A DNA stretch of 64,000 nt, from contig CAVXLD010000001.1 in assembly GCA_963762565.1 (NCBI GenBank), positions 1,312,001-1,376,000 of the forward strand, written 5' to 3'. The notes below the pieces were generated by a model, which saw only the letters and a list, made by a program, of their open reading frames with translations, ran no database searches and was not told where the DNA came from. Shown one piece after another: positions 8,771-40,322 of the stretch (the stretch's first letter is position 1; each line of letters opens with the position of its first letter). This DNA is from an uncultured Verrucomicrobiae bacterium (GTDB lineage: Bacteria; Verrucomicrobiota; Verrucomicrobiia; Chthoniobacterales; JAFAMB01). Made by a program: the position numbers and the translations under genes.

Positions 8771-10072
8771 TTCGCAGTCCTGTAATCTTTTCTCCAGGAA
8801 TACCTTTTCGGACTTGAGATCGGTGAGTTTGATCGCCTGGCGAAAATGTTCGGCCGCTACTTCGAATTGGTTTAGGCGAAATTCGAATTCTCCGAGCACC
8901 GCATAAAGCAGATAATAGGAATCCAGTTGTCCGCTCTTTCGGATGGCTTCGATTGCCGCAATGCCTGCCTTGGGCCCGTTGACGTTGGCAACGGCAACAG
9001 CTCGGTTGAGTGCGATCACTGGCGAGTCATTAATCGTCACCCAATGATCATATAAGGTTAAAATCTTCCACCAGTCAGTCGACTTATAATCGGCGGCCGT
9101 GTCGTGGCAGGCTGCGATCCCTGCCTGGATATGATACTCGGTGATTTCGTCGCCGGCAGCGGCCAATCCTAATTGCAGGATTCCGTGCTCTATCATGTTC
9201 CGATTCCAGAGCGACCGATCCTGCTCTTTAAGACGCAGAATATTTCCCTCCGAATCTACCCGGGCACGGAGCCGAGCTCCATCCAGCAGCATTAGAGCAA
9301 TCAGCGCGTGAATTCGAGGTTGATTCGTCAGTGGATGTTCCGCGAGCAACGTCGCGAGACCAATTGCTTCAGAACAAAGATCCTCTCTAACCAGATTCTC
9401 ACCGCTCGATGCCTTGTACCCTTCATTAAAGAGCAGATACAAGGTCTGTAGGACACCGTCCAACCGACCAGACAGGTCTGAACCGGATGGAATCTCAAAC
9501 GCAATATGCAAATCGCGGATTCGCTGTCTGGCTCGAGTCAATCTTTTGGCGATCGCGGCCTCGGTGGTGAGAAAGGCGATCGCGATTTCGGTAGTACTGA
9601 ATCCGCAAAGAGTTTTAAGAGCTAATGCGGTTTGCGCTTCGGGTGGAAGCTCGGGATGGCAACAGGCAAACATCAACCGCAGACGTCCGTCTCTGATTTC
9701 AGTGTCGAAAATCGGAGAGTCGTCCCCAGCAGGATCCGAAGACCATTGATCGATGAAGGTAATAATCTCGGTTTGTTTATCCCGAAACGTCTTCTCCCGA
9801 CGAATCAAGTCCAAAGCCAGATGCTTTGCGGTCTGAGTGAGCCAGGCCGCTGGGTTGTCCGGGATTCCGTAGTAAGGCCACGTCTGCATGGCACGGACCA
9901 GCGCCTCCTGAACTACGTCCTCCGCTAGCTGCAACCGTTCGATCCCGAAGATACCGGTGAGAACCGAAACTAACTTTCCGGACTCGTGGCGAAAAAAATG
10001 TTCTGCCAACCGGGAAATCTCGCCGGTTGGAGTTTGCGGTTCATTGTTCGCCGTTCCTTGTTCACGGTTCAC
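8726..10072 (-). CDS. ECF sigma factor with C-terminal TPR-like extension (ECF42 type)
   Basis: AEDVVQEA, LRLMFACCHP, LYLLFNEGY, LNRAVAVA motifs; downstream of YciI genes; start uncertain because it lies in a repeat array. Confidence 0.92.
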   Translation of the reverse strand: MNREQGTANNEPQTPTGEISRLAEHFFRHESGKLVSVLTGIFGIERLQLAEDVVQEALVRAMQTWPYYGIPDNPAAWLTQTAKHLALDLIRREKTFRDKQTEIITFIDQWSSDPAGDDSPIFDTEIRDGRLRLMFACCHPELPPEAQTALALKTLCGFSTTEIAIAFLTTEAAIAKRLTRARQRIRDLHIAFEIPSGSDLSGRLDGVLQTLYLLFNEGYKASSGENLVREDLCSEAIGLATLLAEHPLTNQPRIHALIALMLLDGARLRARVDSEGNILRLKEQDRSLWNRNMIEHGILQLGLAAAGDEITEYHIQAGIAACHDTAADYKSTDWWKILTLYDHWVTINDSPVIALNRAVAVANVNGPKAGIAAIEAIRKSGQLDSYYLLYAVLGEFEFRLNQFEVAAEHFRQAIKLTDLKSEKVFLEKRLQDCEGRDRVLAIRGGRSD

Positions 10073-10186
10073 TGTTGTCGTCCTTCTGTTTTAGCCCGCG
10101 TTTGGGTTCTATGCCTCGTCGCTGTCGTCCATAAGCGGCATACGCGAGAACCGCGAACGATGAACCGTGAACCGTGAACGGCGAAC
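10032..10186. repeat. Inverted pair of heptamer arrays (GTTCNNN x6 / NNNGAAC x6)
   Basis: GTTTGCG GTTCATT GTTCGCC GTTCCTT GTTCACG GTTCACT ... CGAGAAC CGCGAAC GATGAAC CGTGAAC CGTGAAC GGCGAAC. Confidence 0.85.
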
Positions 10187-14593: not shown

Positions 14594-14658
14594 GTCGCGG
14601 AATGCAGCGACGCACGCTTAAGGGCGGGAATCAAGTGCGAAAGGGTGGAGGGCGGTGG

Positions 14659-15023
14659 GGCGAGACGGCGAAAGGGCGAAGGGGCGAAGGGGCGACCGAG
14701 GCCCAGCCTTGGTGGGGCGAGGCTCCGGAACAGACGCAAAGATTGCCGAAGGCGCCTCACGTTGCCCGCATTGCCACGGATTAGGGCCTAAGCGCTGCCG
14801 AGCCGATCCCACGTTGGGCCACCCCTAAGAAACCAAGCGACCAACTCGAACCCTATTCCGGCTGCTTACCGCTGGGTCGGCTCGGCAGCGAGTCGATCTT
14901 GCTCCCGATGTCGTCCATTCCCACCAGATGCTTCGCGAATACAATCGGCCGTTCCGGAGCCTCGCCCTACCAGCGCTGGGCTTGGGTCGCCCCTTCGCCC
15001 TTTCGCCCATTCGCCGTTTCGCC
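14659..15023. repeat. Split-REP family B, copy 2 (14711-14971), wrapped by inverted 8-bp GGCGAAGG arrays
   Basis: Outer IR 14711-14726 / 14956-14971; inner IR 14794-14805 / 14878-14889; octamer arrays 14659-14697 and 14985-15023. Confidence 0.88.
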
Positions 15024-16022: not shown

Positions 16023-16934
16023 GTGACTTCGTTCACGTTACCTTTAAGCGCCACCCAAGCCGAGAAACTAAGAGAGCTATTGGCAGAGCAAGGCTTTGAG
16101 TTCATCAGCCGCCCATACATGCTCTTTTTCGCCAGCAAAGGCAAACTCTCCATCGCGGTGTACGAAAAGGGCCCGAAGGTTGTCGTTCAAGGAAAAGGAA
16201 CCGAGGATTTCGTTAAATTCGAGCTCGAGCCGAAGATCACAGGAGAGGCCCGGCTTGGGTACGAAGAGGTTTTGCAGCCTGCGATGTTCGAGCCCCACTT
16301 CGGGATCGACGAAAGCGGAAAAGGCGATTTCTTCGGTCCGTTGGTGATTGCCGGCGTCTTTGTTGATCGGTCGATCGCGCGGCAGCTACTTGATGCGGGA
16401 GTTATGGACAGCAAACGGATCTCGTCGGACCAAAGGATCATGCAGCTGGCCGAACTGATCCGCAGCACTCCTGTTATCAGCACTAACGTAGTCTTGATTG
16501 GCCCCGAAAAATACAACGAATTGTATGAGCGTTTTAACAATTTGAACGATCTGCTTGGCTGGGGTCATGCCAGGGTGATTGAAAACCTTTTAGGGGAACG
16601 ACCGGACTGCCCGCGGGCGCTATCTGATAAATTTGCGAACGAGCGTGTAGTTCAGCGCGCTTTGTTGTCCGCCGGGAGCAAGATCAACGTGGAACAACGT
16701 ACTAAGGCGGAGTCTGATATTGCGGTCGCGGGGGCTTCCATTCTGGCTAGGGAAAAGTTCGTCCGCTGGTTAGACCGGAAAGGTAAAGACCTCGGGATCA
16801 CTCTGCCAAAGGGAGTCTCTGCCGGGGTCAAAGCCGCTGCCAGAGCGATTGTGGCCAAACACGGAGAGGAAACTTTGCGCCAAGTCGCGAAGATGCATTT
16901 CCGGACTGCTGGGGAGGTGATTTCCACGCCGTGA
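16023..16934 (+). CDS. rnhC: Ribonuclease HIII
   Basis: N-terminal TBP-like domain; GIDESGKGDFFGPL, DSK, AGASILARE, KMHFRT; GTG start at 16023 chosen. Confidence 0.93.
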   Translation: MTSFTLPLSATQAEKLRELLAEQGFEFISRPYMLFFASKGKLSIAVYEKGPKVVVQGKGTEDFVKFELEPKITGEARLGYEEVLQPAMFEPHFGIDESGKGDFFGPLVIAGVFVDRSIARQLLDAGVMDSKRISSDQRIMQLAELIRSTPVISTNVVLIGPEKYNELYERFNNLNDLLGWGHARVIENLLGERPDCPRALSDKFANERVVQRALLSAGSKINVEQRTKAESDIAVAGASILAREKFVRWLDRKGKDLGITLPKGVSAGVKAAARAIVAKHGEETLRQVAKMHFRTAGEVISTP

Positions 16935-21615: not shown

Positions 21616-21631
21616 GGGGGTAAAATAGGAA

Positions 21632-21892
21632 GGAGTTGAAGGAGTTCAAGGAGTTGGTAGGGCGAGGCTCCCGAACGACCTAAACCGGTTAGCGGGGATA
21701 CTGATGCCCTATTTTCTAAACGCGTAGTTACTACTGGTGACCCGCCGAGCCGTGTCCTGCGCGACCCACGGCTCGGCGGGCCGCTCGACATAGCGTCGCG
21801 AGATTCTGGAGCGGGAGCCCGGGCTTCGCGCCCTGTTCAAGGTTCTTCAGGAGCCTCGCCCTACCGAACTCCTTGAACTTCCCGAACTCCTT
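21632..21892. repeat. Split-REP family B, copy 3 (21656-21865), wrapped by inverted 9-bp GGAGTTCAA arrays
   Basis: 16-bp outer IR, 69-nt inserts, 14-bp inner IR, 12-nt centre. Confidence 0.9.
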
Positions 21893-27555: not shown

Positions 27556-27563
27556 GAGACAGA

Positions 27564-27728
27564 ATGACAGATGACAAATGACAGATGACAAATCGAATAG
27601 CCAATTGCAAATCGCCACGCGTCGCGAATAGGCGATAGCCACGCTGTCGCGAATAGTCGATAGCCAATCAGGAGATTGCCTTGGCTATTGGCTATTCAAT
27701 TTGTCATTTGTCATCTGTCATTTGTCAT
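27564..27728. repeat. Nested inverted heptamer arrays (outer ATGACAR x4, inner AATAGCC type)
   Basis: ATGACAG ATGACAA x2 - AATAGCC AATTGCA AATCGCC ... GGCTATT x2 - TTGTCAT TTGTCAT CTGTCAT TTGTCAT. Confidence 0.9.
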
Positions 27729-27756
27729 TTTTCCGAAACTGTGGTTTTCAGACAGA

Positions 27757-28509: not shown

Positions 28510-28518
28510 CGTTCCTAA

Positions 28519-28588
28519 ATGACAAAGTGACAAATGACAGATCGCCGCGAGACTACGGCGCTTGGCGGGAAAATTTGTCATCTGTCAT
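28519..28588. repeat. Inverted ATGACAR heptamer arrays (empty)
   Basis: ATGACAA-A-GTGACAA ATGACAG ... TTGTCAT CTGTCAT, between convergent stop codons. Confidence 0.8.
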
Positions 28589-28590
28589 TC

Positions 28591-28809: not shown

Positions 28810-28824
28810 AGGAAATAAAGGGGA

Positions 28825-29077
28825 AGGAGTTCAGGAGTTCAAGGAGTTGGTAGGGCGAGGCTCCCGAACGGCCCAAGCCTGTTCGCGGGGATACTGATGC
28901 CTCATTTCTAAAGGTGCAGTTACGACTGTTGACCTGCCGAGCCGTGCGCTGCGCGACCCACGGCTCGGCGGGCTGCTTGACGTCGCACCGCGAAATCCGG
29001 GACGGAACATCGGGCTCCGCGAACTGTTGAAGGTCTTTCGGGAGCCTCGCCCTACCATCTCCTTGAACTCCTCGAAC
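28825..29077. repeat. Split-REP family B, copy 4 (28849-29056), wrapped by GGAGTTCAA arrays
   Basis: 16-bp outer IR, 68-nt inserts, 14-bp inner IR, 12-nt centre; alignable end to end with copy 3. Confidence 0.9.
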
Positions 29078-30655: not shown

Positions 30656-33166
30656 TTAGGCTGATCTTGCTAGGCGTGAGATAAATCGCCCGGTGTACCG
30701 TTGACTCTGAGCGGGAGCCAATTGAGGCAACGGATCACGGGCTGGGCTCCTGGTGGAATGCACATACCTTGAAGCCATCTCCCGCAACTGCAACCAGCGG
30801 TCCCAATCGTAAGCGGGCGCTTGTGTGATCTGCCGCAGCAAACTTCGCCATTCAGTAAGCGCTCGTTCGATATCCCCGTAGCGCACGCTCTCGCTGACCA
30901 GCCGATGGCGAGGTACCTGATGTGCCACGACTTCCCGCACCACTTCTGAACCTCCTGGCCCATACGCAATGGGCAGCCCCATCTCGAGGTAACCTGAGTA
31001 CTCACCCCGCTGATAGACCGTTTGGCAAACCGCACCTAATCGTCCATGGGAATAGGTTTCATCCAAAGAAAACCGATGCCCGACACGAAGATTGGCTAAA
31101 TCAAAAACCAAGTCCTCGATTGGATAATCCGACTCTTCAAGAGCAGCAGCGATCGCCAGGCCCTCTCCCTGATTGAAAAAACTGAAGATAATCCCGCGAC
31201 GGGTGGGAACCCCTCTCTGATCCACCAGACCAAGTTGTCGCCAAGCTAACGCGGGTGAAACCGAAAGCTCCAGAGCCTCACAATCCGCTTTTAGCGCACA
31301 AGGCTGGCAAACCGCTGGATAAGTTCGGCGGGTCTCGGGGTTTTCCAAGATACGGCCGCGGCCGTCTCGATAACCGGTGACCGGTAAGCCGGCAAACCGG
31401 AACCGGCCAAAAATCATCCCGTCTCGGACGCACTGTTCATGGAGCCGCCCACTCATCTCGGCTTCCACAATCGGTAGCACTTGCTTTAAGAATTCTTCTG
31501 GTTTCCAACCATTGACGGCAGCCAGCAAAGGAAACCGTTCACGAAGAAGCTTCCGCAGCCATTTGGCCGCCAACCAACTTCCTCTTTTTTCGGCTGCAAG
31601 CGGGATTTCTCTGCCGTATTCAAACGGCTGCCGGACCTGAGTCTGCCCCGTGGGCCCGTCCTGAGCTTGTCGAACGGGTTCACCAAACCTGATCTTACAA
31701 AGGGCGCCGAATCCGTGCTTTTGAGCAATAGCAGCCACCGTCAAAGCGGGCCGCCAATGTCCGGTCGGCAATCGAACCAACAGCTCGCCCAAGCCAGCCT
31801 CGCCAGGGGCGGGCAGCGGCTCCCAAAGTCCCTCCGGCGTAAGCATTTCCCGATCGTGTCTTCGGACCAGCCGCGCTCGTTCGCCATCGACCGGCAGGCC
31901 ACAGAGCGGATCGCTTGCCGAATTTTCCTTAACGGCATAAAAGCTCTCGACGCCAACAGTCAGGGGTCTGGATGAAAAAAGCCCAGCGATTAGCTGCCTG
32001 GCTTTCAAAAAAGGGTCCTCGTCGCGTAAGGCCGCCTGGCGCATCACCCCGATCATAGTCGGCCAGTCCACCGGCTCTGCTCTCCTTAATTTGAGGGGGT
32101 GAGCGTCGTGCAGCCGGGGGATATCCGGCGTGACTAAAACGTAGCCGAACTCGTCCAGTCCGCGGCGGCCAGCCCGGCCAAACATTTGTAATAGTTCATC
32201 GGGACGCACTTGCCGTTGAAAATTGCCGGCCTGGTATTGAGTCCCGGTGACGAGGACTGAACGCATCGAAAAGTTAATGCCCGCCGCCAGCCCCATAGTT
32301 GCCACGACCACTCGTAGTTGTCCCCGTTTCGCCAATGGTTCAACGATGCCCGCCCGTACCGCATAGCTAAGTCCGCTGTGGTGGAATGCGACCCTGTTCC
32401 GCAACAATTTCCCTAACCGGTCGCCGGTCAACGCCTGCTGTTCCTGGGTTAGGGATAAGGGCTCGTCGAGCGGTAGCGTCGACGAGAGTGCCGTAGCCAG
32501 GTCTTCGGCCATTTGCCGCCGTGGCGCGAAGATCAGCAGTGGCCCGAGATCGGCGAGCAGCGCTCTGCTAATCAGTTTCGGCCAATAGCCACGAACCATT
32601 CCTGGCGCCGCAACCGGGAGATCGCTCAGCATCACCTCATCCAGCTGGACCGGCCGTTGTTGATGAGAGATCAATTCGGCCGGTCGCCCGATGCGGCGCA
32701 GCCATTCCACCACGTCAGCCGGGTTCCCGACACTGCCGCTCAAGAGAAGTAGCTGGGTCTCCGGCGGCGCCAGCGAGAGGATAATTTCATAACCGGTTCC
32801 GCGAATTGGATCAGCGATGAGTTGATATTCATCGACCACCAGCAGCCTCGGACCGTCCCGATGGAGAAAACGTCCCTTTTGAGTCTCCAAGGTTGCTACC
32901 ACAACCCGCGCATCGAGGTTCTCAGCCAAATCACCCGTCGAAATACCCACATCCCACCCTCGAGCCCGCCACTCAGCCAGCTTGTCATTAGCCAATGCTC
33001 GAGTCGGGACGGTAAAAACCGCCTGGCCTTTGAGGGATTCGTACAATAGCTCGAATATGTACGTTTTCCCCGCGCCCGTGGGGGCATGAACCACTACGTC
33101 TTTTCCCTCGCGCAACAGCTTGACCGCGTCCTGTTGCCACTTATCAGGGATGATCAAATTGACCAT
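30656..33166 (-). CDS. DEAD/DEAH-box (Ski2/HelY-like) SF2 helicase
   Basis: APTGAGKT, PTRALANDK, VVDEYQ, LSGS, HHSGL, QMFGRAGRRG. Confidence 0.92.
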   Translation of the reverse strand: MVNLIIPDKWQQDAVKLLREGKDVVVHAPTGAGKTYIFELLYESLKGQAVFTVPTRALANDKLAEWRARGWDVGISTGDLAENLDARVVVATLETQKGRFLHRDGPRLLVVDEYQLIADPIRGTGYEIILSLAPPETQLLLLSGSVGNPADVVEWLRRIGRPAELISHQQRPVQLDEVMLSDLPVAAPGMVRGYWPKLISRALLADLGPLLIFAPRRQMAEDLATALSSTLPLDEPLSLTQEQQALTGDRLGKLLRNRVAFHHSGLSYAVRAGIVEPLAKRGQLRVVVATMGLAAGINFSMRSVLVTGTQYQAGNFQRQVRPDELLQMFGRAGRRGLDEFGYVLVTPDIPRLHDAHPLKLRRAEPVDWPTMIGVMRQAALRDEDPFLKARQLIAGLFSSRPLTVGVESFYAVKENSASDPLCGLPVDGERARLVRRHDREMLTPEGLWEPLPAPGEAGLGELLVRLPTGHWRPALTVAAIAQKHGFGALCKIRFGEPVRQAQDGPTGQTQVRQPFEYGREIPLAAEKRGSWLAAKWLRKLLRERFPLLAAVNGWKPEEFLKQVLPIVEAEMSGRLHEQCVRDGMIFGRFRFAGLPVTGYRDGRGRILENPETRRTYPAVCQPCALKADCEALELSVSPALAWRQLGLVDQRGVPTRRGIIFSFFNQGEGLAIAAALEESDYPIEDLVFDLANLRVGHRFSLDETYSHGRLGAVCQTVYQRGEYSGYLEMGLPIAYGPGGSEVVREVVAHQVPRHRLVSESVRYGDIERALTEWRSLLRQITQAPAYDWDRWLQLREMASRYVHSTRSPARDPLPQLAPAQSQRYTGRFISRLARSA

Positions 33167-33189: not shown

Positions 33190-33217
33190 CATACCCAATA
33201 GCAAATAGCCAATAGCC
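33190..33217. repeat. Heptamer array, left arm of four-helix-bundle cassette
   Basis: CATACCC AATAGCA AATAGCC AATAGCC. Confidence 0.8.
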
Positions 33218-33238
33218 GATGGGGTCTCGGTCCCAGCG

Positions 33239-33691
33239 TTACTCCGGGCGGGTCGGCTTTCGGAATTCACTGAGCGATTCCTTAATTCCCGCCTGTGAGC
33301 GGTAGCGTTTGCCTTTGACCGAAGAATCCTCGATTGAAGTGATCCAGGCCGTAATCTGGCGCGCACAGGATTTGGCCAATTCGAGAATTAGGACAAATTG
33401 CCCGCTCAATTCCGCCAGGCGCCGGCGATTTTTAACTACTGCTATCATCGAACGGACTTCACCCGCCGAGCCTCGAGCAATTCCCAGGTATCCCACCAAC
33501 TCTTTGGTTGAGGCGCGTTCAAAGCCTTCCGCGATATTATTGGAAACAGAAAGCCCCGCTCGATCCAGCTGGTTTCGAAATCCCGAGGTCAATGGGCAGT
33601 TGAGGTCCTCCAGCAGATCCAGTACGGCGTTGTACAATCGAGCGGCTTCTTGCCAGACGGGCAGATCTTCGAAACGCTCATACTTAGCCAT
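33239..33691 (-). CDS. Four-helix-bundle protein (TIGR02436 / 23S-IVS-protein / Avd-like family)
   Basis: FEDLPVWQEA, NQLDRAGLSVSNNIAEGFER, LGIARGSAGEVRS signature. Confidence 0.93.
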   Translation of the reverse strand: MAKYERFEDLPVWQEAARLYNAVLDLLEDLNCPLTSGFRNQLDRAGLSVSNNIAEGFERASTKELVGYLGIARGSAGEVRSMIAVVKNRRRLAELSGQFVLILELAKSCARQITAWITSIEDSSVKGKRYRSQAGIKESLSEFRKPTRPE

Positions 33692-33748
33692 ACAACGCAA
33701 AATAATAGTGTTTGTTTATGTAAACGCAACGCTCTATTTTGCCCCCTT

Positions 33749-33776
33749 TGCTATCGGCTATTGGCTATTGTCTATT
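33749..33776. repeat. Heptamer array, right (inverted) arm of cassette; contains the bioB stop codon
   Basis: TGCTATC GGCTATT GGCTATT GTCTATT. Confidence 0.8.
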
Positions 33777-34697
33777 CTGCAGGCCTAACGCCTGCAGCAG
33801 CTCCCGATCCTCATCCACCCCCGGATTCGCAGCGGTCAAGAGCTTGCTTCCGTAGAAAATCGAATTGGCACCAGCAAAAAAGCAGAGCGCTTGTGCTTCC
33901 TTGGATAGCCGAGTCCTCCCGGCGGACATGCGGACCCGCGCTTTTGGCAGAACGATCCTGGTGGTGGCTATCAATCGGACCAGCTCGAATACATCAACCG
34001 GCGGTTGCGCTTCCAATGGAGTCCCCGGCATCGGGATCAGGCAATTGATCGGCACACTTTCCGGTGTCGGATCAAAGCTAGTCAGTACTTCTAACATTTT
34101 CAGACGGTCGGTTTCTGATTCTCCCATCCCAATGATACCGCCGCAGCAGACAGAGATACCGGCCAACTGAACCGCTTTGATCGTATCCAGCCGATCTTGA
34201 AAGGTATGGGTGGAAACTATCTCCCGGTAGAATTCTTCCGACGTGTCGAGGTTATGATTGTAGGCAGTAACTCCCGCTTCTTTCAGCTTCTTCGCCTCAG
34301 ACGACCCGAGATGGCCTAACGTGACGCAGACCTCCATGCCGAGACGGCTGACGTTTCGGACGATATCTAAGACTTGCTCGAATTTCGCCTCGCCTTCTCG
34401 GACGCCCTTCCAGGCAGCACCCATACAGAATCGAGTGGAGCCATTTTCCCTGGCTCGTTCCGCTAACTTCAGAACCTCTTCGGTCTTCATTAGGCGGCCG
34501 GCTTCCACCCCGGTGGAGTAGCGGGCGCTCTGTGCACAGTAGGCGCAGTCTTCACTGCATCCGCCGGTCTTAATGCTCAGCAAGGTGCAAAGTTGGACCT
34601 CGTCCCGCGACCAATGTTCGAGATACACCGAGCGCGCCTGTGAGATCAGGTCGAAGAAAGGTTGAGAATAGATTTCTTGTAGTTCAGGGAGTGTCAT
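33765..34697 (-). CDS. bioB: Biotin synthase
   Basis: KTGGCSEDCAYCAQS radical-SAM motif, YNHNLDT, ESVPIN, AGANSIFYG. Confidence 0.98.
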   Translation of the reverse strand: MTLPELQEIYSQPFFDLISQARSVYLEHWSRDEVQLCTLLSIKTGGCSEDCAYCAQSARYSTGVEAGRLMKTEEVLKLAERARENGSTRFCMGAAWKGVREGEAKFEQVLDIVRNVSRLGMEVCVTLGHLGSSEAKKLKEAGVTAYNHNLDTSEEFYREIVSTHTFQDRLDTIKAVQLAGISVCCGGIIGMGESETDRLKMLEVLTSFDPTPESVPINCLIPMPGTPLEAQPPVDVFELVRLIATTRIVLPKARVRMSAGRTRLSKEAQALCFFAGANSIFYGSKLLTAANPGVDEDRELLQALGLQNRQ

Positions 34698-35477: not shown

Positions 35478-35581
35478 AACGGCGTTAAGCTTGGCGCGGA
35501 CGCTCTGTTCCGTCAACCCGCTGGAAGTCATCTGGAGCTAGAATCTAGGAGCTAGAAGAGCGTGTCGTGGCTCTAAGGTAA

Positions 35582-35752
35582 TCATTCTCGTCCTCGTCGT
35601 CGTTCTCGTCCTCGGAAAGTGGTGGGTTTGCTCGCCGAGTTGCATCGGTTGCAGAGCCAATCTCTGGCAAAAATCGAAAGTCCTAGGTCTTACACAATCT
35701 TGGGCGAAATTTCGCTTTTCGAGGACGAGGACGACGACGAGGACGAGAACGA
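35582..35752. repeat. Family E element, copy 4
   Basis: TCATTCTCGTCCTCGTCGTCGTTCTCGTCCTCGG / TCGAGGACGAGGACGACGACGAGGACGAGAACGA. Confidence 0.85.
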
Positions 35753-40215: not shown

Positions 40216-40243
40216 GGCCTTATAAGAGGACGAACCGAGAGGA

Positions 40244-40322
40244 ATGACAAATGACAAATGACAGATGACAAATTACCGAGGGCGGTGGCTCAATTTGTCA
40301 TTTGTTATCTGTCATTTGTCAT
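40244..40322. repeat. Inverted ATGACAR heptamer arrays, 4+4 units with 23-nt centre (empty)
   Basis: ATGACAA ATGACAA ATGACAG ATGACAA / TTGTCAT TTGTTAT CTGTCAT TTGTCAT. Confidence 0.9.

Follow-up and report, generated by a model that had tools for sequence, protein, structure and literature searches.

In RAYT/REPIN systems, a single conserved gene for an HUH (Y1) nuclease lies between inverted repeats, and numerous further pairs, extragenic and without a gene, share a fixed polarity. The mobility of REPINs, the PF05635 proteins and paired heptamer arrays are three long-standing puzzles, and we know of no condition named in print that activates any of them. In Coxiella burnetii, an intervening sequence of the 23S rRNA bears an ORF for a PF05635 protein inside its terminal stem (S23p; PMC4990558), with tandem GACAGAT units ahead of the start codon, and Avd of diversity-generating retroelements (4DWL, 8UB7; PMC10053308) has a four-helix-bundle fold. 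Paired heptamer arrays have been described between genes in Xanthomonas and Nostoc, in Xanthomonas often as convergent pairs (PMC4692102), and intergenic TAACTGA arrays in Beggiatoaceae (PMC4679880); the cited parts of both papers leave the origin and the binding protein of the arrays open and draw no link to the PF05635 family or to DNA uptake. In Legionella, comEA, comEC, comM and radC, together with comF, belong to a competence regulon under sRNA control (PMC12378983).

Here, we analysed the window, the whole stretch of 64,000 nt of DNA from an uncultured Verrucomicrobiae bacterium, in which the four-helix-bundle gene P0001 lies between bioB and a helicase gene and is enclosed by inverted AATAGC(C/A) arrays (Table 1). 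ORF, profile and TRF analyses confirmed this arrangement, which a previous sequence-only reading had reported, and the bioB stop codon (TAG, 33765-33767) falls within the upstream arm, as that reading had stated. The pattern ATAGCMRATAGCM matched five times in the window against 0.00 expected (100 shuffles). The arms were also able to pair round the gene as proposed, with both DNA and RNA folds giving a stem of ~21 bp that encloses P0001 (whole-region z -1.6 and -2.8). Heptamer pairs earlier placed near 10032, 28519 and 40244 were all present, and the gene-less AATAGCC pair reported at 27596-27696 exists in a degenerate form, nested inside an AATGACA pair. In congeners, the spacer of this nested hairpin carries one arm type only or a half-replaced form, and that of the pair beginning at 28517 carries other unit types. 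Larger palindromes between inverted 8-, 9-, 7- and 6-base arrays lie at window positions 14649-15023, 21629-21890, 28824-29077 and 35530-35752, and these four spacers hold different elements in congeners, where compared.

Table 1. Features of the cassette, its host genes and the gene-less pairs (window coordinates)
Feature	Position	Strand	Basis or remark
Four-helix-bundle gene P0001, 150 aa, TIGR02436/PF05635	33239..33691	-	profile scores, structure model, dN/dS
Upstream arm, reading (AATAGCM)n on the strand of P0001	33750..33776	-	TRF, 3.9 copies
Downstream arm, inverted copy of upstream arm	33191..33217	+	TRF, 3.9 copies
Dyad box, core AAC-N13-GTT at 33694-33712	33691..33715	.	directly 5' of the P0001 start codon, inside the arms
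Weak sigma-70-like pair TTGCGT-16-TATTAT, 8/12	33702..33729	-	overlaps dyad box; inferred
bioB, upstream host gene	33765..34697	-	TIGR00433
Ski2/Hel308-like DEAD/DEAH helicase, downstream host gene	30656..33166	-	profile scores
Gene-less nested hairpin: AATGACA outer arms 27558-27590/27699-27730, degenerate AATAGCC inner arms 27596-27696	27558..27730	.	
Gene-less AATGACA pair, 28517-28539/28573-28589	28517..28589	.	
Gene-less AATGACA pair, 40243-40273/40293-40322	40243..40322	.	
Gene-less pair of another heptamer (GGTTCAC/GAACCGT type), 10037-10076/10148-10186	10037..10186	.	

In its working the cassette resembles a RAYT/REPIN system that lacks a nuclease of its own, and in its build the Coxiella intervening sequence, but it belongs to neither group and also falls outside the diversity-generating retroelements. 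It shares with the 23S rRNA intervening sequence the terminal inverted repeats that form a stem round an ORF, so the layout, which the sequence-only reading had put forward as a candidate new cassette, is already known inside 23S rRNA. A search of the literature outside subscription journals and supplements, covering the layout and the family with repeats, retrieved no description of such a cassette outside rRNA. In contrast to the Coxiella element, the cassette lies between protein genes rather than inside a 23S rRNA gene, occurs in either orientation and has a box of its own upstream. In Coxiella, the ORF is regarded as unexpressed and decaying (PMC4990558). The GACAGAT heptamer of that element is also the unit of the type B arms found at the bioB-helicase site in relatives. 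The cassette resembles RAYT/REPIN in its many extragenic inverted pairs of fixed polarity, and short RAYT-type genes of the host genome share its box; it differs in having no HUH nuclease, in its tandem heptamer arms and in the mostly unrelated interiors of the gene-less pairs. Neither a reverse transcriptase nor template or variable repeats were found in a scan of seven flanking ORFs, unlike in a diversity-generating retroelement. The arrays of the cassette host are intergenic, as in Xanthomonas, Nostoc and Beggiatoaceae.

P0001 scored 69.6 bits against TIGR02436 (cut-off 24) and 74.9 bits against PF05635 (cut-off 33.8), and its structure model (pLDDT 81) places helices at residues 11-27, 36-59, 62-88 and 93-122 in a four-helix bundle. 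The nearest structures were Xcc0516 (2GSC; sequence E 2e-7, and first by fold with E 0.008) and BT_0352 (2RLD), with Avd lower in the list. A Foldseek search with the model gave no match at E <=0.001, and the Avd chains aligned with TM ~0.7 on the target, E 0.3-0.5 and 11-12% identity. Xcc0516 is reported to form a homopentameric ring (PMC4990558), and P0001 carries no known catalytic motif. Genes of the P0001 type are, on the sequence evidence, under purifying selection (dN/dS 0.05-0.11 in six pairs of homologs).

The sequence-only reading had proposed a mobile, transposase-free cassette and suggested inspecting the flanks of homologs for arrays. The host genome holds eight TIGR02436 loci (nine matches, one gene being split by an insertion), with array units of 7, 7, 7, 8, 7, 7, 6 and 9 bases; inverted arrays flanked all seven scored loci (scores 20-82), and the eighth has 9-base arrays by eye. 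Paired arms were present at 89 of 160 scorable homolog loci, a set that includes the window itself and one duplicate, compared to 0 of 111 control windows. Within the host family, arms surrounded 97 of 109 four-helix-bundle loci (from a set of 128, with 16 dropped for lack of an ORF match and the window counted twice). The protein tree revealed that the arm unit tracks the protein clade across hosts and sites, which suggests that the protein may recognise its arms, although co-variation is no proof of binding because arms and gene are linked in cis. One paralog (L006, G000 C3:44257-44848) is split by a palindromic insert that recurs at C1 near 424400 (L291). The viral collection gave one match.

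The host genome contains 1082 heptamer arrays (240 on C1 versus 1 after shuffling) and 252 inverted 7-mer pairs versus 39 expected. Gene-less pairs had been regarded as empty derivatives of the filled cassette; a few true relics exist (G003 and one in the host genome), yet 206 of the 314 gene-less pair interiors are unique sequence, so deletion from the cassette was rejected for most of them. Many of these pairs sit within REP-like palindromes, and only one pair has a P0001-type relic. In congeners, the corresponding spacers still carry a hairpin of some kind, though its type differs or it is nested or half replaced. No target-site duplication was found by eye, in spacers that are highly diverged and nearly always hairpin-filled.

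To follow the bioB-helicase slot in relatives, we compared the 14 family genomes (of 43 searched) with bioB beside the helicase or a cassette, together with four metagenome contigs. One genome (G011) has a spacer of ~60 nt with no arms, another (G013) an unrelated palindrome, and two (G009, G017) arms with no gene; G003 retains a relic of the gene of G002 (89% over 164 nt), and G014 several arms with a relic, by eye. AATAGC-armed genes at the slot (G000, G020, G042; contigs L126, L127, L152) are all in sense orientation, whereas those with AATGACA arms run in the sense direction in G023 but in antisense in G002, G041 and L171, and G007 carries a third arm type in antisense. The G023 and L171 cassettes matched as reverse complements from arm to arm (77.7% identity over 593 nt) with collinear flanks, an inversion between the arms, and a second flip was seen at another site beside another neighbour gene (L118/L124 versus L128). 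The slot of G012 holds a chimera: one type contributes its left arm and its 5' half, which are joined to the inverted 5' half and the right arm of the other. The sister group of P0001 is located at other sites, and a single clade of slot occupants was rejected (AU p 0.0004; AATAGC-armed genes alone, p 0.0013) in a test on 23 chosen rows with one long branch, the choice following sight of an earlier tree. The slot content is thus, as read from these alignments, gained, lost, replaced and inverted between arms.

Stable synteny without arrays, named in advance as the pattern that would speak against mobility, is not what the relatives showed: the slot turns over through empty and replaced alleles, and arms surround the paralogs. 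Excised forms had been suggested as something to look for in reads; in the assembled contigs, neither an excision nor an inversion joint of the cassette was seen. Junctions from which the gene is missing contain foreign sequence in between and REP-like loose ends and are read as gene-less hairpins from elsewhere. The cassette recurred in two other soil studies in the same orientation, in one of them with a 95-nt deletion in the gene. At the slot of G020 (L070) and G009 (L076), the end of an insertion-sequence-like element lies just inside the left arm, at full length in G020. The proposal that the gene rides the host transcript was weakened, since five homologs at the site are antisense to bioB with their own box and the closest kin have clearer sigma-70-like hexamers (9-10/12); the window copy itself fails a consensus promoter scan.

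Directly upstream of P0001 lies a dyad box that the sequence-only reading did not describe and that the cassette has in common with comEC, comM and radC. AAC-N13-GTT was found upstream of 20 of 170 homolog loci (1.8 expected), inside the arms and inverting together with the cassette. A scan of the host genome located the box before comEC, comM, radC, recQ, DUF2851 and GxxExxY genes, short Y1/RAYT transposases and cassette relics, before a pilin gene with a PilC/GspF gene behind it (type IV pilus operon) and before a VirB2-like pilin gene, as well as before bactofilin, motA/exbB and genes of no assigned function. To guard against circularity, the matrix was retrained only on comEC, comM and radC of other genomes. 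The box core preceded radC in 27/29, comM in 22/26 and comEC in 21/29 of these genomes, compared to at most 4 for other spacer lengths and 0/29 before bioB. With the host-trained matrix, the box of the window scored 15.0 bits, and 13 of 3420 ORFs reached at least 14 bits. The same threshold was reached by 59 of 112 host-family four-helix-bundle loci from many clades, by GxxExxY genes (7/11 in the host genome and 14/27 in other genomes; together 21/38) and by short Y1 (RAYT-type) genes (4/7, versus 0/5 long Y1 genes). The GxxExxY nucleases and the short RAYT-type transposases are two unrelated hairpin-associated families that thus have the same box as the cassette. At 18 bits, N13 gave 35 matches versus 1-6 for N11, N12, N14 and N15, and these spacer shifts rejected simple AT-richness as the source of the box. 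Another match in the window, at 16512-16536, scored 17.0 bits with the first matrix and below 14 with the host-trained one.

The box is lineage-specific. Among homolog loci from other sources, 8/161 were boxed, all of them close metagenome kin and five at the bioB site; in 30 genomes outside the family, comM (0/28 scored) and radC (0/26 scored) had no box, and the P0001 homologs there were also unboxed; presence versus absence counts as one lineage contrast and not as many. Six of the eight host-genome TIGR02436 loci and whole clades of the tree lack the box as well; with 153/161 loci unboxed elsewhere, it is dispensable for the existence of the cassette.

The box is probably a dimer-type candidate binding site whose regulator is probably a repressor, as suggested by its varying distance from the start codon and its overlap with the -10 element in P0001 kin. 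No regulator was found among the boxed ORFs scanned. Control by LexA (SOS) was rejected, as lexA and recA score below 0 for the box. A separate TGTTC-N4-GAACA dyad lies just before lexA (G000 C1 677540, minus). We take this dyad to be the Verrucomicrobia LexA box. An ECF-sigma promoter is unlikely, because the GTT abuts the ATG in 16/68 cases, the distance varies between 0 and 35 and the logo of the oriented sites is symmetric, a symmetry partly built in by choosing sites with a symmetric matrix. An own sigma-70 promoter is weak as a general rule (17/68 boxed versus 3/39 unboxed loci).

Further boxes were recorded in the course of the scan. A VirB2/TrbC-like pilin gene has two (G000 C1:511813 and 511849; L397:960-1316, minus) and a TraG/VirD4-like gene one (G000 C1:490213; L301), and the boxed regulon may include a type IV secretion-like system. 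Two boxes precede a DUF2851 gene (G000 C11:64582 and 64623; L399:708-2090, minus), a candidate DNA-uptake or recombination gene. Three precede a 360-aa protein followed by a YrhA-family gene (G000 C3:715265-715477; L306), for which similarity searches gave leads only. A pilin footprint retained 5 of 18 loci after filtering. Strong boxes also lie, by eye, within cassettes that have decayed: one with a four-helix-bundle gene cut short, one in which 9-base arms enclose a truncated GxxExxY gene, and one a relic with REP flanks (L403:1690-1900, L294:1380-1650, L295:1200-1560).

The shared box suggests that the cassettes would be switched on at DNA import. In transformation, single strands enter via ComEC (PMC12378983, PMC13663708), comEC, comM and radC are listed together among the Legionella competence genes (PMC12378983), and ComM is needed for integrating insertions, with mutants 2-3 logs worse (PMC13663708). 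We propose that the arm-box-gene-arm unit is a selfish hairpin cassette that would occupy an intergenic slot, and that one host regulator, probably a repressor, would release the boxed genes together in the competence state, when DNA is taken up. Next, the Avd-like protein would bind its own heptamer arms, folded as a hairpin on imported or displaced ssDNA, and in the bound state would favour integration or retention of the armed allele. Cutting and joining would come from the recombination machinery of the host (RecA, ComM), acting between the conserved genes on either side, or from co-induced nucleases, and flips from recombination between the two arms. For the full chain, a selfish hairpin cassette timed to the DNA-uptake state of its host and acting on ssDNA, we hold a chance slightly short of even; far more confidence attaches to each of two points, that the cassette is mobile and that the box is a genuine shared site.

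The presence of one shared control element at comEC, comM and radC is a feature that the host family has in common with Legionella, the element being a DNA dyad in the former and an sRNA in the latter (PMC12378983). The host regulon differs from that of Legionella in that dprA and comF are unmarked, comEA was not found in the host genome and mobile cassettes make up a large share. Indeed, dprA, comF, recA, lexA and ssb, all named beforehand, have no box in the host genome, and dprA was unboxed in 30/30 other family genomes. In 30 family genomes examined, dprA overlaps or follows the end of its upstream gene (aroB in the host genome; L305, L635-L664). The boxes of recQ, bactofilin and motA/exbB indicate that the regulon may be a wider one of DNA stress. 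A literature search on competence or the radC/comM motif in Verrucomicrobia, and on the motif with RAYT, outside subscription journals and supplements, retrieved no description of the box.

A broader version of the competence reading holds that the three armed families (Avd-like four-helix bundle, GxxExxY nuclease and RAYT) would form a guild of transformation-dependent selfish elements, each having acquired the host competence operator and thereby making its protein just as ssDNA comes in, recognising its own arms on that ssDNA and driving hairpin replacement in a shared slot. We regard this extension as rather unlikely.

The strongest competing explanation, which we consider improbable at about one chance in a handful, is that the box marks a LexA-independent DNA-damage or ssDNA-stress regulon, so that the cassette would be timed to intracellular ssDNA and would move within the genome without uptake. 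The boxes of recQ and radC, the unboxed dprA and comF, the missing comEA and the presence of close P0001 kin at several different sites all fit such a regulon, whereas the unboxed recA, lexA and ssb and the boxed comEC and pilin-PilC operon do not. Somewhat less probable again is domestication, in which the host would retain the cassettes within the uptake regulon to read repeat tags on incoming DNA (kin preference, in the manner of uptake sequences) or to help purge mobile elements. Strong purifying selection, the 1082 heptamer arrays of the genome and retention of the box in many protein clades agree with a host function, but many copies are broken or relics, occupancy is patchy, only 34 of the 1082 arrays lie in long ORFs, where 61% would be expected, and ORFs show no enrichment of single heptamers. 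DNA uptake sequences are unlike the heptamer arrays in their ORF distribution. Uptake-sequence-like tagging by the heptamers is accordingly not supported, the arrays lying mostly outside long ORFs.

We give little credence to an RNA-level element, a counterpart in mRNA of the 23S rRNA intervening sequence, which RNase III would cut from the bioB-helicase transcript and whose repeat RNA the protein would act on. An RNA stem does enclose P0001, the Coxiella element combines a 28-bp stem with GACAGAT heptamers and RNase III cleavage (PMC4990558), and Avd acts within a ribonucleoprotein; yet this explanation leaves movement between sites, flips and the shared box unaccounted for, and the stem forms in both orientations, so that it may only render the insert harmless. 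Equally improbable is that the gene is passive cargo, its protein having no role: slippage and fold-back copying would give rise to the arrays, and the gene would be carried along by RAYT or by recombination of the host. In favour are the mostly unique interiors of the gene-less pairs, their frequent nesting in REP-like palindromes and, in some unit families, an arm that is a closer mirror image of its own partner than of a swapped one (positive for AATAGC and AAGCAGT, marginal for two families); against it stand a unit that tracks the protein clade across hosts and sites, dN/dS of ~0.07, strict polarity in 195/195 short pairs and negative mirror tests for the AATGACA and GGTGATT pairs.

Taken together, the cassette is real, and the new part is its candidate regulatory link to the competence genes. 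Also new is the comparison of 14 relatives at the slot, where this one site is without arms, armed but empty, or filled by relics, by genes of different lineages in both orientations or by a chimera, with common ancestry of the occupants rejected. The elements described in PMC12378983 block competence, with RAYT unmentioned in its cited parts; on the competence reading of the cassette, mobile elements would have joined the DNA-uptake programme instead. The box defines a conserved regulon in this soil-bacterial family of Verrucomicrobiota, and as a lineage-specific shared site it ties PF05635 proteins, paired heptamer arrays and REPIN mobility to comEC, comM and radC and names a candidate condition for all three. 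The guild, if true, would account for what PF05635 proteins do, how paired heptamer arrays arise and what sets REPINs in motion.
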